Positions 10,675-32,702 of a DNA stretch of 57,384 nucleotides are shown piece by piece (the first letter of the stretch is position 1; the number at the start of each line of letters is the position of its first letter). Under the pieces are notes generated by a model. That model made no database searches, was not told the origin of the DNA, and worked only from the letters and a program-made list of their open reading frames with translations. Position numbers and translations under genes: made by a program. This stretch comes from a virus (lineage: Duplodnaviria > Caudoviricetes): positions 1 to 57,384 of IMG/VR virus record IMGVR_UViG_3300049596_000539; one strand, given 5' to 3'.

Positions 10675-13080
10675 TCAACTACCCGACCCGTTCAAACTAT
10701 ACGTCGTCGTCCCATCCTTGCGGTCTGGGTTAATGCGCCCGGAGTTTACCAGGAAGCTGATCCGGTCGTCAAGCTCTCTCGGGCTTCGCTGAATCATTGC
10801 CCGGAAGCGGTGGAGGAGCTTCGTGGCCGTTACCGAACCACCTTGAGTGCGGATATAAGCCTCAATCTCGTTGGCAGAACGGCTGAACTCAGACTCAGAG
10901 GTTTCTTCAACCACCCGGAGGAAGTTGTAGAACCAATCCGTCCCGTACCAAATCGCAATGAGTGCATCGGTTTCTGTGAACTGCGTGCGTCCATCGTAGA
11001 GAGCCGTGAGAGCCGCACACTTGACCAGGGTTTCCGTCAGGCGGGTAAGAGGGCCTTGCAGAACGTCGTATCGCTCATGGGACCGGCACATAGCATCGTA
11101 AGCCAGAGCCGCCTTACTGAGACGCGCCCAGCCCTCATCCGTTGCCCCCACAACCGTTTCGCCCGGGAACATGTACGCGGTGTACAACAGATCCGATGCC
11201 AGATCAAACACCGCGGGGTGCGTGCGGGTGCGTGCGTCCACCTCAGTAGGACCCAGGTTAAAGCGCTCTTCATCCCCTTCATCCCGATCCGGTGCCCACG
11301 TCCAGTTCACACGGCTCATGAAGCCTGATTCGAACATCCCTGTTGTGACAAGGCTCAGCAACTTATCCGGAGTAGCCGACATGTTCAGCCCGAAAGAGGT
11401 TGTCGCTCTCTTCCCTCGGATTTCTTTGGGCAACCGGACCTTGTTGGAGGGCTCCACATCGCCGTCGTAGAACCTAGAGAAGTGGTGCTCAAGGGTTTTC
11501 ATCCACTGACTGTCGTGAAGGTCGCTGAAGAAAGACGCCGCTTCGTCGTGGTGGATCATGCTCGCCAGGCCATCCCGCATCAGCAACTCTTCGTGAATCG
11601 CCGTGGGAGATGAGGAAGCACCCACGTTGTAATAGCCCTGCTCGTCGTACGCCACGATGTCTAGAAGTGAGCGGAGAAACTTCATCGAACTGGTTTTTCC
11701 CGTCCCCGTCCCGCCCATCTCAATGAACCACAAATTAATCCCCAGCCCGTTATAGGCCAGGACAACCTTCGTCCCAAATGCCATACTCAAAGCCGTCCAC
11801 GCAGCGGGAACATCGTACGCCGGAACAGAGAAGCCCTTCTTAAGTGATGCCTCAAGGTATTCGTCAATGAACGTGCGAGTCCTCTTGACGACAGTTACCT
11901 CTTCGTCGGTGAGGAAGGCGTGTGTTCCGTGTTCCACCGTATCCGGAATCTGTACTTTTGTGGAACGGTCGGGAAGCGAGGGGTTCTCCCGGATCGGTTC
12001 TGGCTTTGACCTAGCAGATAGCACCCGTTCATGAACGAACTCCAGGCTCCACTCGCGGGAAATATCCCTGGTCCTAGGTGAATTCCAAAGAACAGAGGTT
12101 ACGAAAAGGTCATCATCTGTAGCGCGCTGAAGCTCCCGCAGTAAGGCACTAAACTCCGCCTTGCCCCCGGGCGCTCCGGTAAGGAGGTTGTCGGGGACGG
12201 ATGCAGGGACTTTGTTGATGTCATAGGCGGGGAGGCTTTTTCGTAGCTCAATAGAGTCACCGTATCGCTCAATGCCCGATGACAGCGCTTCATGAAACTT
12301 CCACTCCCACCGATCTTCCGGCGTGGTGTGCCCTCCGGGGTCACGGGAAAGCCAAGCATCCTCAAGTGCCGACAGCAGTTCCGGCACGCCTGTTGCGGCC
12401 TCAGCACCCAGCCGGATAGCTTCGTAGGTGGCCGACACCATTTCCTGATGCGACATATCGTTATTGACGCGCTCTATTGCCCGGCGGACAGCGACGTTCG
12501 GGGGACCAACTTCAAGTGTGTCGTACCACTCTTTCAGCCCACCTGAAAATGACTCGGAGGACTTTACGGTTTTTTCATCCAGCATCCACTCAGGCGCCGG
12601 TGAGAACTCTTCACGACTCTTCGGAACATCGCCGTTCCATAGTACCCAAGAGGACCCGGCGCGGATGTCTACGCCCTGCATCCCCCGGTAGTTAGTCGCG
12701 GGAGCCAGGTTCTTTCCCTCGGGTGCTGTGTAGATGAGGTGCGTTCCGCCAGAGGGGGTCTCATAGCTGAACGTGCTCGGGATCTCGTACCAGGATTTCT
12801 CCAGAGAATCCCAACCCGACTTGCCGTTCTTCTCGTCTACGTCTAGCCCAATAAGCCCGGCGGCTCCCAGGTACGCACCGACTCGTGCGGACTTGTTCTC
12901 AGTGAACCAATCCTCGACAAGACCGGGGTCAAGGGATGCTTCGAGATGGCCGTTCTTGTGGCCCCACGGCTCCTTAACGCCTTCTGACGTAATGCGCGCT
13001 TTAAACACGGGAATGCCCAGTGCTACAAGCCCCCGGGCGATATCAACCGAACGGTGTTCCATAGGTAGTTCGGTCTTCAA
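10675..13080 (-). CDS. Bifunctional primase-polymerase fused to a helicase/ATPase domain
   Basis: Prim-Pol motifs LDVD, TPSGGTH, GVDIRA; Walker A GGTGTGKT; HHDE Walker B; DUF3987-like C-terminus. Confidence 0.9.
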   Translation of the reverse strand: MKTELPMEHRSVDIARGLVALGIPVFKARITSEGVKEPWGHKNGHLEASLDPGLVEDWFTENKSARVGAYLGAAGLIGLDVDEKNGKSGWDSLEKSWYEIPSTFSYETPSGGTHLIYTAPEGKNLAPATNYRGMQGVDIRAGSSWVLWNGDVPKSREEFSPAPEWMLDEKTVKSSESFSGGLKEWYDTLEVGPPNVAVRRAIERVNNDMSHQEMVSATYEAIRLGAEAATGVPELLSALEDAWLSRDPGGHTTPEDRWEWKFHEALSSGIERYGDSIELRKSLPAYDINKVPASVPDNLLTGAPGGKAEFSALLRELQRATDDDLFVTSVLWNSPRTRDISREWSLEFVHERVLSARSKPEPIRENPSLPDRSTKVQIPDTVEHGTHAFLTDEEVTVVKRTRTFIDEYLEASLKKGFSVPAYDVPAAWTALSMAFGTKVVLAYNGLGINLWFIEMGGTGTGKTSSMKFLRSLLDIVAYDEQGYYNVGASSSPTAIHEELLMRDGLASMIHHDEAASFFSDLHDSQWMKTLEHHFSRFYDGDVEPSNKVRLPKEIRGKRATTSFGLNMSATPDKLLSLVTTGMFESGFMSRVNWTWAPDRDEGDEERFNLGPTEVDARTRTHPAVFDLASDLLYTAYMFPGETVVGATDEGWARLSKAALAYDAMCRSHERYDVLQGPLTRLTETLVKCAALTALYDGRTQFTETDALIAIWYGTDWFYNFLRVVEETSESEFSRSANEIEAYIRTQGGSVTATKLLHRFRAMIQRSPRELDDRISFLVNSGRINPDRKDGTTTYSLNGSGS

Positions 13081-13160
13081 GCTGTGCTCCCTCGTCCTCG
13101 AATATCAGTCTATCGCGTCTCCCCGTACGCCTCAATAAATTTCACATCAGTTTCGTAAAC

Positions 13161-13240
13161 GCGCAACGGGGAGGATTCGAACCTCAAACCAAATTAACCA
13201 GTGCCACTGGCGTTGCCACCCCTCGATCATTCCCGCTTGC
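13161..13240 (-). ncRNA. Degenerate tRNA-like element
   Basis: T arm GAGG-UUCGAAU-CCUC; bulged acceptor GCAA(G)CGG/CCGUUGC; CCAGU-GGC-ACUGG hairpin; no canonical D stem. Confidence 0.45.
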
Positions 13241-13275: not shown

Positions 13276-13355
13276 TGGAAGTGGGGCGGATCGAACGCCC
13301 GTCTTGCAGAGTCCAACTTGTGGTTTTGTTCTGCAATCGACACCATTTCACTCCC
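13276..13355 (-). ncRNA. Mini-tmRNA: tRNA-like domain only, no tag ORF
   Basis: Acceptor GGGAGUG/CACUUCC-A with G3-U70; stemless D loop AAAUGGUGUCGA; helix 2a UUGCAGA/UCUGCAA closed by a 19-nt loop; GAC linker; T arm GGGCG-UUCGAUC-CGCCC. Confidence 0.85.
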
Positions 13356-13358
13356 GTA

Positions 13359-13404
13359 CGTCAGATAGTTTTACAACCCGAGGGCCTTCGTCCTCCACCT
13401 GACG
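13359..13404 (-). ncRNA. Hairpin resembling 16S rRNA helix 16
   Basis: 10-bp closing stem CGUCAGGUGG/CUAUCUGACG carrying GAAGGCCCUCGGGUUGUAAA. Confidence 0.65.
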
Positions 13405-13411
13405 GGTGTTT

Positions 13412-13478
13412 CTTCTACACGCGACTCGGCAAGGTCGCAATATTCACCGATGTAGAAGCCGGGTTATCGCCTCCCGGG
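13412..13478 (-). ncRNA. Structured 5' segment of the ncRNA cluster
   Basis: Stems CCGGG/CCCGG, CUUCUACA/UGUAGAAG and GCGAC/GUCGC directly after the promoter. Confidence 0.45.
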
Positions 13479-13483
13479 TCTTT

Positions 13484-13493
13484 CAGTCTATCA
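13484..13493 (-). promoter_or_regulatory. Extended -10 promoter heading the ncRNA cluster
   Basis: TGA-TAGACT overlapping the ssb stop codon; same motif recurs genome-wide. Confidence 0.65.
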
Positions 13494-15016: not shown

Positions 15017-15663
15017 TAGACCTTCTTCAGTTCGGGGATCTTCTTCTCTGCGATAACCGTCTCCCGAGCCTTCAGAGCGCTAGAGCCCTCCTTCTTCAAC
15101 TCTTCGATCCGGTCATTCACTTCCTTCTTCCGAGTTGCGTCCCCATCAATCCACACCCGGATACGGTCATTAGCCTCCGCCAACTCTCCCCGACCCGACG
15201 CCGGTACGGACGCCTGGTTTGTCGGCTGTGGGGGCTTAGGAGCGGCGTTGGCAATGGCGCGTTCAGCAGCACTCGGCTGTGACGCTGCGTTTCCGTCATC
15301 GTCCCCATCCGCAACCACTCCGGTGAGAGACGCCAAAGCATACCGCCGGTAATAACTGATCGCTGAACCAACCTTTTGCGGGTTAGTCTCGGTGATCGGG
15401 AACTGCATGCTCCGAGAAGTGCCGGATTCGTGCATAAGGTGGGCGTCCAGAATCATTACGCCGTTTTCCACGAAGGCCCCGGTTGAGAATGCAAGTCCGT
15501 GTTCGCTCAGCTTCGGCAAAACAATCGTGCTCATGTTCGCCAGCGTTGCAAACTTGCTCTTGAAATGCGGATTAATCGCATCCATGTCTACCCGGGGGGC
15601 ATCCGCCTGAAACGCTGCCAGTGCCTCAGTCAGAGAGCCGTACTTTTTCGTTGCGTTAACCAT
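15016..15663 (-). CDS. ERF family ssDNA-annealing protein
   Basis: NPHFKSKFATL, L.H.SG and Q..GSAISYYRRYAL...DDDGN motifs; AAGGAG RBS before ATG at 15663. Confidence 0.9.
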   Translation of the reverse strand: MVNATKKYGSLTEALAAFQADAPRVDMDAINPHFKSKFATLANMSTIVLPKLSEHGLAFSTGAFVENGVMILDAHLMHESGTSRSMQFPITETNPQKVGSAISYYRRYALASLTGVVADGDDDGNAASQPSAAERAIANAAPKPPQPTNQASVPASGRGELAEANDRIRVWIDGDATRKKEVNDRIEELKKEGSSALKARETVIAEKKIPELKKV

Positions 15664-16183
15664 TCGTTTTCTCCTTCTTAGATTTGTGATAGAAAAGTCG
15701 TTTGCATTCCCTGCATCCTCTGTAGCCGTTAGGGTAGAGGTACAGATTATCACCTGAGTAGGGGTGACCATGCGCGCAATGTGTCTTATGAGATTGTCGG
15801 TTGTAATCCTGCCCATTTCTAAGGGCGTCCTGAATGTTATCCTGTTGCGTGCCCCAAAGCAAGTTCTGCACTGAATTATTGTCTTTGTCGTCATCCCAAT
15901 GCCGAACAACGGGATAACCATTTGGATTCGGGATAAATGCTCTGGCCACTAGGCGGTGAATCTCTCGGGACATCTGATTCCCGTCCTTGTGCAAACTCAC
16001 GCGGTAATGCCCTTTAGAGCCCTTGTTCGGCTTCAGAACTCGGCCCCTCCAAAGAACCTTTTGCCCCGACCGCCGCAAGACATAGTGATCGTAACTCCGA
16101 ACACGACCCAAATTGGAGACTTCATAGAGGCCCTCATAACCCACAACCGGTAGCCATTCCTCTAGATCATTCACGCTACCCAT
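15656..16183 (-). CDS. NUMOD4-HNH homing endonuclease
   Basis: EEWLPVVGYEGLYEVSNLGRVRS (NUMOD4); HRLVA.AF...H.D.DK.NN...NL.W; C-terminal KTHC..GH...C.EC. Confidence 0.92.
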   Translation of the reverse strand: MGSVNDLEEWLPVVGYEGLYEVSNLGRVRSYDHYVLRRSGQKVLWRGRVLKPNKGSKGHYRVSLHKDGNQMSREIHRLVARAFIPNPNGYPVVRHWDDDKDNNSVQNLLWGTQQDNIQDALRNGQDYNRQSHKTHCAHGHPYSGDNLYLYPNGYRGCRECKRLFYHKSKKEKTNG

Positions 16184-16250
16184 CAAGCGTTACCGCCGGA
16201 AGGTCTGCCTGAAAGGCGGCGAGTGCCTTGGTGAGTGCGTTTTCTGTCAT
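16176..16250 (-). pseudogene. Orphaned 5' fragment of the ERF gene (24 aa)
   Basis: MTENALTKALAAFQADLPAVTLDG* aligns with the ERF N-terminus LTEALAAFQADAPRVDMD; GGGAG RBS. Confidence 0.8.
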
Positions 16251-27025: not shown

Positions 27026-27414
27026 TGCGTGTTTCCCTTCTCGTAGTTTTCGGTCTTACCCTCAGCCTATCACTACTTTTCACGAGATCCTTGGTTGTTA
27101 CCTAATCGTTATAAAGGGAAACTAACCCAAAAAAGTGTGGCCCAGTAGGCTAAAAAACTAACTATTTTGGCGTCGGTTTAGTGGGTAAATCGGGGTGTCC
27201 GGAGGTCCTCGACGTACTTTTAGGGTCTTTGGGACGGTTTTGAATGAGTGTGAAACCCTGATTTTATGCGGAATACGACGGAGAGTTGTGGCCCTAAACA
27301 TGATACATCTATAACTCACTCATCTATATTACTAGGGTTAGGGATTTACGGTTGTTACTGCTCTGCACTGGGAGACTTCATCGGTAGGCTCTAGTTATGT
27401 GGTAGGTTTATTTT

Positions 27415-32595: not shown

Positions 32596-32702
32596 CCCTC
32601 TTTCACTTTGACTCCCAGTCAATTCACAGCATAATTTCCCGCCTCACAGGCTAATTCGCTCTTTTCCCGTGATAGATTGTAAGGGAGGAGAGGGGATTTA
32701 TC

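Follow-up and report, generated by a model that had tools for sequence, protein, structure and literature searches.

A hairpin copying the apical part of 16S rRNA helix 16 in the non-coding DNA of a phage, and its recurrence in other phage lineages

The current analysis confirmed, in the non-coding DNA of a phage, a hairpin in which the apical two-thirds of bacterial 16S rRNA helix 16 are truly copied and set on a new closing stem. It is located in a complete virus record of 57,384 nt with direct terminal repeats, which was analyzed at its full length and is referred to here as the window. A copy of the same helix was found in seven other phage lineages, i.e., the Curtobacterium phages Yappy and Mantle/Thatch and the viral contigs L143, L144, L184, L190, and L193. 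We give about even credence to the reading that the hairpin is a selected helix-16 mimic that would be freed by tRNA-processing enzymes and would bind a host factor recognizing this helix.

The window sequence is present in lake-water and groundwater metagenomes, and no RNA datasets were found among the sequencing runs that contain it. Contigs from four sequencing runs differed from the window at four positions, all in one run and none within the hairpin or the adjacent tRNA-like domain, which is too few to interpret. The hairpin occupies a 410-nt gap inside the replication module, which also encodes Erf, an exonuclease, and DNA polymerase A. Upstream, the gap borders on a 109-aa ORF, the DNA of which is similar to the region around the ssDNA-binding protein gene in Microbacterium phages; downstream, it borders on an 801-aa primase/polymerase gene (10675-13080, minus strand). 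The module furthermore contains a gene for a homing-type endonuclease with NUMOD4 and HNH_3 domains (15656-16186, minus strand), a 37%-identical homologue of which is present in L193. No Rfam family, be it rRNA, tRNA, or any other, was matched at its gathering score in the window record. The gap and its borders harbor the following features:

13485..13493, minus strand: putative extended -10 promoter TGATAGACT, overlapping the stop codon of the upstream ORF
13405..13480, minus strand: conserved 5' leader module of 76 nt, shared, with compensatory stem changes, by the WaterT group of phages
13359..13404, minus strand: helix-16 mimic hairpin, based on fold, RF00177 match, identity to natural 16S rRNA, and covariation across phage copies
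13276..13355, minus strand: tmRNA-like element consisting of the tRNA-like domain only, based on alignments with RF00023 and with real tmRNAs and on blastn
13163..13240, minus strand: weak second tRNA-like element, based on weak Rfam matches and called by ARAGORN at the 80% threshold only
13107..13116, minus strand: putative second promoter-like site GCGATAGACT, preceding the primase/polymerase gene

Read along the minus strand, the putative untranslated unit comprises a 76-nt leader, the hairpin, the trinucleotide UAC, the 80-nt tmRNA-like element, and the weaker tRNA-like element (13240-13163). The putative promoter at 13485..13493 would place its start at about 13479-13477. The sequence GATAGNNT with TG before it is located 25 to 65 nt ahead of the listed starts of the window ORFs 32703, 41576, and 50727; further copies (49046, 27071, and 4012) are more distant from listed starts, and several GATAGNNT matches lie within long ORFs. 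The motif TGATAGNNT is repeated in the window, e.g., at 32671, 41529, and 50662 on the plus strand and at 27071, 13493, and 4012 on the minus strand, and is probably an extended -10 promoter element of this phage. A homologue of the second promoter-like site, GCGATAGGATAGA, precedes the primase gene in the phages of the WaterT group and in the related contig L016. Neither putative promoter was called in a sigma-70 promoter scan. On the plus strand, a terminator scan called two sites with a hairpin and a T run at 13387-13408, where they run antisense to the 5' side of the helix-16 copy; there is no evident plus-strand gene in the vicinity.

An earlier note on this DNA, made from its letters alone, had described the hairpin and its fold, and both were reproduced: the minus strand from 13404 to 13359 reads CGUCAGGUGGAGGACGAAGGCCCUCGGGUUGUAAAACUAUCUGACG, exactly as given there, and RNAfold pairs positions 13404-13395 with 13368-13359, which is the new 10-bp stem that had been proposed, followed by an internal loop, a GCC/GGG apical stem, and a CUCG loop. 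The predicted energy is -17.3 kcal/mol (z = -2.71; 2 of 200 shuffles were equally stable). The helix-16 core GACGAAGGCCCUCGGGUUGUAAA corresponds to positions 13392-13370 (minus strand, 23 nt). Within it, the apical stem and tetraloop GGCC CUCG GGUU (13386-13375) both also occur in natural 16S rRNA, and the internal-loop strands GACGAA (5') and GUAAA (3') fit the natural GAYGAM and GUAAA, so that all parts described as retained, namely the GGCC/GGUU stem, the tetraloop, and the internal-loop strands, are indeed present. The 4-bp basal stem, which was fully paired in all 103 natural 16S copies examined, is not kept: GGAG stands opposite ACUA in the natural register, with one of four pairs formed (three of four if an extra A is bulged). 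Its substitute is the 10-bp stem, which is shifted by 2 nt on the 5' side and 1 nt on the 3' side. An intrinsic terminator was considered and rejected, because the hairpin is followed by UACGGGAG and no U run, and a scan gave no minus-strand terminator there. A covariance model of the phage copies, R1, scored 39.2 bits at 13366-13396, a value obtained by construction since the window copy is one of its training rows; it detected no further copies in the window or in the corresponding loci of the relatives.

A search of the whole record with the bacterial small-subunit family RF00177 returned a sole match, i.e., 13370-13392 on the minus strand against model positions 407-429 (9.6 bits, E = 0.05), and therefore the placement around E. 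coli positions 410-432 given in the earlier note was right. With respect to significance at the genome scale, the window match taken alone is marginal, and it is the recurrence in other phages that raises the element above chance. The reported agreement at 19 of 20 nt was an understatement, as at least 120 genome stretches contain an exact match to the 20-mer that has C in the tetraloop; in all 25 of the commonest flank classes, which account for 82 of the 120 matches listed, this sequence is preceded by the conserved 16S flank ...GCGTG. Among 401 sampled Actinomycetota genomes, exact GAYGAMGGCCYTCGGGTTGTAAA is present in 111, with copy numbers consistent with rRNA operon counts, and this statement also stands without the four genomes flagged as unpublished that are included in the count (G125, G179, G231, and G153). 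The complete window 23-mer GACGAAGGCCCUCGGGUUGUAAA is found exactly in five of the 401 (G197, G004, G395, G298, and G019), and the natural 16S gene L054 shares a run of 29 identical nt with the window (13398-13370), including three letters upstream of the helix.

The phage hairpin agrees with natural helix 16 at each of the conserved positions. Natural helix 16 has the same GGCC/GGUU apical stem, the same class of tetraloop (CUCG, UUCG, UUAG, and CUAG all occur), and the same GAYGAM and GUAAA strands as the phage copies, which share identical stretches of 23 to 31 nt with natural genes. Natural helix 16 is embedded in 16S rRNA, whereas the phage copies stand alone in non-coding DNA with no other part of 16S rRNA, as established with RF00177 for the window, Yappy, and the L144 record. 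A 16S rRNA gene in the window was rejected, as no small-subunit match reached the gathering score and only 23 of the 1533 model positions were matched. The description of the hairpin as free-standing accordingly holds in the sense that the record contains no other 16S part, but the hairpin would belong to a small untranslated transcription unit, 3 nt upstream of the tRNA-like domain of a tmRNA-like element.

Each of the other lineages has a single copy, which lies in non-coding DNA and reads in the sense direction. With the 46-nt hairpin as the blastn query, 20 of 50,697 phage records were matched, comprising three in non-coding phage DNA (Yappy, Mantle, and Thatch), 13 16S or short unannotated records matching on the same 16S stretch, and four short matches in coding DNA. 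The Yappy copy, GCGG GAUGAA GGCC UUCG GGUU GUAAA CCGC, is identical over 31 nt to the 16S rRNA of genome G251 and is located after the first tRNA of an array, where it takes up the spacer separating tRNA-Asn from tRNA-Trp. The copy of L144 is located between tRNA-Asp and tRNA-Glu of a Yappy-like array, after six tRNAs and about 1 kb into it; within a 37-nt spacer, both copies are separated by 2 nt from the preceding tRNA and by 4 nt from the following one, and they occupy different slots of homologous arrays. RF00177 matched positions 403-433 only, both in Yappy (21.9 bits, E = 6e-6) and in the L144 record (18.1 bits); profile searches of the genomes G001, G406, and Mantle with this family did not report the copies. 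Mantle and Thatch are phi29-like 18-kb phages, in which the copy, carried by a closing stem of 12 bp, closely follows a TTGACA-17-TACAGT promoter and precedes the late genes. The hairpin itself was called as a tRNA neither by ARAGORN nor with the Rfam tRNA model.

An exact 17-mer scan of viral contigs yielded six loci, two of them non-coding copies (L143 and L144) and four chance-like matches in coding DNA. The degenerate pattern GAHGAMGGNCNTNGGNNTGTAAA, in which the stem letters are free, yielded 12 loci. In L144, L184, L190, and L193, all four apical and all four basal pairs are formed and the copy lies outside any long ORF, with variants in the form of a UUAG loop (L184), a CUAG loop (L190), and a GGUC/GACU apical stem (L193). 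L143 has three of four basal pairs in register plus an extra 7-bp outer stem. The remaining loci were L185, which is ambiguous and lies within a 365-aa ORF (23.8 bits with model R1), and six chance-like ones. A reversed-pattern control in viral contigs gave two loci, neither with both stems paired, and exact viral-contig scans for the window 20-mer and for the 5' end of the window tRNA-like domain gave none. In each of the five phage records searched, one copy was present, and always on the strand of the neighboring genes.

The hairpin is all that L143, L184, and L190 have in common in sequence. Its placement varies from the start of the late mRNA in Mantle and long leaders in L143 and L190 to the tRNA arrays of Yappy and L144; in three lineages (the window, Yappy, and L144), the copy directly adjoins tRNA-type processing sites. 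A DUF3310 protein shared by the window, Yappy, and L144 was rejected as a meaningful link, since the family is too common in phages. The copy of L143 lies in a long ORF-poor region of an actinobacterial provirus (L143:1394-3155), which spans about 1.7 kb, is highly structured, and is flanked by a repressor-like gene and by early genes (anti-restriction-like and Lsr2-like); this region is possibly a long non-coding RNA.

Both stems show covariation. Across all eight copies, 93.8% of pair cells are paired, compared with 80.8% in shuffles, four of the eight pairs change on both sides, and the covariation score is reached by none of 500 shuffles. A basal stem of the natural 4-bp type is present in six of the eight copies (4/4 pairs in Yappy, L144, L184, L190, and L193, and 3/4 in L143), and this stem lies outside all search patterns. 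The unpaired strands GAYGAM and GUAAA are intact in all eight, and their variation matches natural 16S variants. That unrelated phages carry the copy with covarying stems speaks for sequence-specific selection and is in keeping with a mimic, although repeated capture from rRNA genes, with no long selection, could also account for the identity to natural variants. The idea of an antisense RNA directed against 16S rRNA was rejected, as each of the eight copies reads in the sense direction of its neighbors. The earlier expectation that the core would be conserved with a covarying closing stem in related phages is borne out for unrelated phages, in which the core does recur with covarying stems, but not for near relatives, i.e., the WaterT group and L016, which lack the full hairpin.

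The nearest known phages are the Microbacterium phages WaterT, LeeroyJenkins, Cassita, BarnCat, and Lifes, with a primase identity of about 45%. They share the 5' leader of the window, which is composed of a hairpin CCCGG/CCGGG with the loop GAGGCGAUAA, a long helix CUUCUACA/UGUAGAAG around UCGG/CCGA, and a terminal AAACAC; a pseudoknot GCGAC/GUCGC is possible. The module is present at the same place in all five phages (L002:1911-1985, and likewise in L003, L004, L005, and L006), with compensatory stem changes in this group (CUCCGCA/UGCGGAG and ACUG/CAGU) and a leader hairpin loop that reads GA(A/G)GCGAUAA across the window and the five phages. The leader had no Rfam match at E<=10, a degenerate pattern of its hairpin gave eight loci with no homologue among them, and blastn with the WaterT leader returned only the five known phages. 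A single-protein scan with the primase found no close relatives; a primase alignment scan of viral contigs led to L016 and L017 and a metagenome scan to L147. The helix-16 hairpin is absent from L016, L017, and L147, and the full hairpin is absent from the WaterT group. In every relative found (L002-L006 and L016), the gap that separates the genes for the ssDNA-binding protein and the primase holds a tRNA-Leu(CAA).

The slot of the hairpin is not empty in the WaterT group. Lifes carries a small hairpin GGACA-CGAUGAUAAAC-UGUCC (L006:2160-2185) 4 nt before the tRNA, and the other four phages carry AGCCA-UGUCCGUGAUAAAC-UGGCU (L002:1990-2015). The loops CGAUGAUAAAC and UGUCCGUGAUAAAC resemble the internal-loop strands of helix 16, with the two connected directly and no apical stem between them, and, as a post-hoc lead drawn from this likeness, they may represent a reduced form of the same element. 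Lifes has an extra tRNA-like sequence that ends in an encoded ACCA, has an "anticodon" loop of 5 nt, and was not called by ARAGORN. A 150-nt element with acceptor-like pairing GGACCU/AGGUCC and the T arm CUCCG-UUCGAUU-CGGAG is present in WaterT, LeeroyJenkins, Cassita, and BarnCat.

The tmRNA-like element of the window (13276..13355) starts 3 nt (UAC) downstream of the hairpin. It exhibits an acceptor stem GGGAGUG/CACUUCC with G3:U70, discriminator A and no encoded CCA, a D-loop analogue AAAUGGUGUCGA without a D stem, a P2-like stem UUGCAGA/UCUGCAA with a 19-nt loop, and a T arm GGGCG-UUCGAUC-CGCCC with a T loop of the GUUCGAUC type. RF00023 spans it end to end with 32.2 bits, and 15 nt take the place of 306 model positions, so there is neither a tag frame nor pseudoknots; this score lies below the gathering score of 47, and ordinary tRNA-size loci of 76 nt score 30 to 42 bits with the same family. 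In clan competition, the tmRNA model outscored the tRNA model at this locus. The element aligns with the ends of four real tmRNAs, and when its 3' half was used as a blastn query, the best matches were tmRNA genes annotated in Streptomyces phages. ARAGORN called no tRNA here, and RF00023 gave no match in the window when whole genomes were searched by profile, compared with the match obtained when the short stretch was scanned. A second, diverged element with only the tRNA-like domain is present on a lake-water contig (record 10 of run X14), in which the acceptor and T stems differ and G3:U70 is kept.

Judged by its sequence, the element would thus belong to an already known kind, the tmRNA with only a tRNA-like domain. 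A tmRNA reduced in this way is known from mycobacteriophage DS6A, according to the tmRNA Website entry cited in PMC4131195. By its description there, the DS6A molecule shares with the window element an acceptor stem, a D-loop analogue, a short P2, a T arm, and the lack of a tag frame; it stems from a different phage group, and the window element scores below the Rfam gathering score. A similar molecule with only the tRNA-like domain is reported in PMC4131195 and PMC11915505 to inhibit tmRNA, perhaps via SmpB titration. A permuted two-piece tmRNA, called by ARAGORN at the 90% threshold, was rejected because its "tag" falls inside the primase gene and the unpermuted tRNA-like domain suffices to explain the data. 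The weaker element (13163..13240) shows a T arm GAGG-UUCGAAU-CCUC and acceptor-like pairing, either GCAACG/CGUUGC or GCAA(G)CGGG/CCCGUUGC, with no canonical anticodon arm; it matched tRNA-Sec with 15 bits and mascRNA with 11.3 bits in Rfam and could be a decayed tRNA or another decoy.

Under the mimic reading, the hairpin would be transcribed within a short untranslated unit together with the tRNA-like-domain-only tmRNA and the tRNA-like element. RNase P acting at the downstream 5' end and a 3' trimming enzyme acting at the upstream tRNA would then free it as a small stable RNA; such a release by tRNA-processing enzymes is suggested because only 3 nt separate the end of the hairpin from the tRNA-like domain in the window, and because the copy lies between two tRNAs in two other phages. 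Once freed, it would occupy a host factor that normally reads helix 16. The reported inhibition of tmRNA by molecules of the neighboring kind (PMC4131195, PMC11915505) fits a decoy cassette.

The foremost candidate for this factor is uS4, a protein that nucleates 30S assembly and represses its own operon, and whose titration would disturb host ribosome biogenesis. That helix 16 is part of the uS4 site, as the earlier note had stated, is in line with the contacts at G410, A411, A412, and the backbone of 425-430 given in PMC2665224, and the GAYGAM and GUAAA strands kept in the phage copies are the nucleotides of these published contacts. Deletion of 410-432 lowered uS4 binding more than 380-fold according to the same source, which describes the site as a five-way junction of helices 3, 4, 16, 17, and 18 and names helices 3, 4, and 16 and junction residues as necessary. 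Of this junction, the window has only helix 16; a complete uS4 site was therefore rejected, and isolated helix 16 should bind uS4 weakly at best, because binding also depends on helices 3 and 4 and on the junction (PMC2665224). No factor other than uS4 is documented to touch the kept nucleotides. We regard uS4 as a plausible candidate partner, with clearly less credence than the mimic reading as a whole. A phage-encoded partner of the S4 type is not indicated, since none of the five phage records searched encodes an S4 domain (PF01479). A literature search found no published nuclease targeting helix 16. A bolder version is that exact, portable helix-16 copies in phages of Actinobacteria, cut from tRNA-type transcripts, titrate free uS4 or another reader of helix 16, such that host 30S assembly is shut down or redirected; we consider this version rather doubtful. 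The UUAG-loop and lower-GC copies perhaps extend the element to phages of other phyla.

Among the competing explanations, the one that survives best takes the hairpin as a module for stability or processing, i.e., an unusually stable, ready-made hairpin captured from abundant rRNA or an rRNA gene that spaces tRNA-type substrates for RNase P and the 3' trimming enzymes, or protects a transcript from decay by capping its 5' end, with no specific partner. YNMG tetraloops are very stable, in Yappy and L144 the copy occupies the 37 nt between two tRNAs, the window hairpin stands immediately ahead of a tRNA-like domain, and the 12-bp stem of Mantle/Thatch stands just past the promoter at the start of the late operon. 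Plain stability, however, does not need GAYGAM and GUAAA, which are nonetheless kept in eight of eight copies and vary as natural 16S rRNA does. Moreover, other spacers of the same tRNA arrays lack the hairpin, and different phages picked the same helix from the whole of rRNA, with RF00177 finding nothing else in the window, Yappy, and the L144 record. We regard a mere stability module as unlikely.

Less probable again is an action in cis, by which the hairpin on a nascent transcript would recruit uS4 or another ribosome-assembly factor and thereby block Rho-dependent termination of long untranslated phage transcripts, e.g., tRNA arrays and leaders, or aid their folding. uS4 also acts in rRNA antitermination, all eight copies are located in untranslated RNA, and three are promoter-proximal, namely about 75 nt past the putative start in the window, at the start of the late transcript in Mantle, and after the first tRNA in Yappy. 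The copy of L144, in contrast, follows six tRNAs about 1 kb into its array, and uS4 is expected to bind isolated helix 16 weakly (PMC2665224), which makes such a recruiter quite improbable.

The distance of 3 nt between the hairpin and the tRNA-like domain, and a weak Rfam tmRNA_permuted alignment that covers both (12.9 bits, E = 3.1), would also be compatible with the hairpin being a working part of the neighboring mini-tmRNA, joined to or paired with its tRNA-like domain and acting on stalled ribosomes. No tmRNA-like element was detected next to the hairpin in the other seven lineages, however: RF00023 gave no match for G001, Yappy, and Mantle and only tRNA-size partial matches in G002, and ARAGORN found no tRNA or tmRNA in L143, L184, L190, and L193. 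RNase P would, furthermore, be expected to cut between the hairpin and the domain, and we see very little room for this explanation. A chance resemblance with no function linked to helix 16 is hardly credible, since the window match alone (9.6 bits, E = 0.05) and the emergence of such plain 17-mers in viral coding DNA (four of six loci) are outweighed by full flanks and covarying stems in seven more lineages versus none of the two reversed-control loci, by the Yappy match over the whole helix (E = 6e-6), and by three copies in isolate phage genomes, which make assembly artefacts unlikely.

Several known systems resemble the proposed mimic in part. RNA anti-CRISPRs, which copy CRISPR repeats as decoys, follow the same logic, in which the protein partner of a host RNA is occupied by a short phage-made copy of that RNA; the RNA copied is another one, and the partner is putative here. 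The leaders of ribosomal-protein operons, e.g., Alpha_RBS in Rfam and the rRNA-like mRNA site in the alpha-operon leader to which uS4 binds (PMC2665224), are likewise extraribosomal RNAs resembling the rRNA site of a ribosomal protein, but they are cellular, control their own operon, and show mostly a likeness of shape, whereas the hairpin is a literal copy. The hairpin region had no match to an Rfam ribosomal-protein leader at E<=10, and a simple motif search of the rpsM-rpsK-rpsD region of three Actinomycetota genomes found no helix-16-like hairpin. In phage tRNA arrays such as those of Yappy and L144, the hairpin takes a slot like a gene of its own, with spacers of 2 and 4 nt, and differs from the other members in having no tRNA features. 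A literature search, with supplements outside its scope, found no precedent for a phage-borne literal copy of a single rRNA helix, a phage rRNA mimic, or a uS4 decoy. The recurrence of the copy in several unrelated phages, often between tRNA genes, points to an RNA mimic not described before and directed at the ribosome machinery of the host.

With respect to phage biology, the spacers of phage tRNA arrays can carry non-tRNA cargo, and the helix-16 variant carried may hint at the host lineage of a phage. The stretch of 23 to 31 nt provides a search key for further cases, and three culturable phage-host pairs are available in Yappy, Mantle, and Thatch on Curtobacterium. If functional, the hairpin would be a compact, sequence-defined phage tool acting on ribosome assembly or on ribosome-linked control, and a natural probe for factors that read helix 16 outside the finished ribosome. 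If the decoy reading is true, a new class of "rRNA-helix decoys" would stand alongside decoys of the translation apparatus such as the tRNA-like-domain-only tmRNA.
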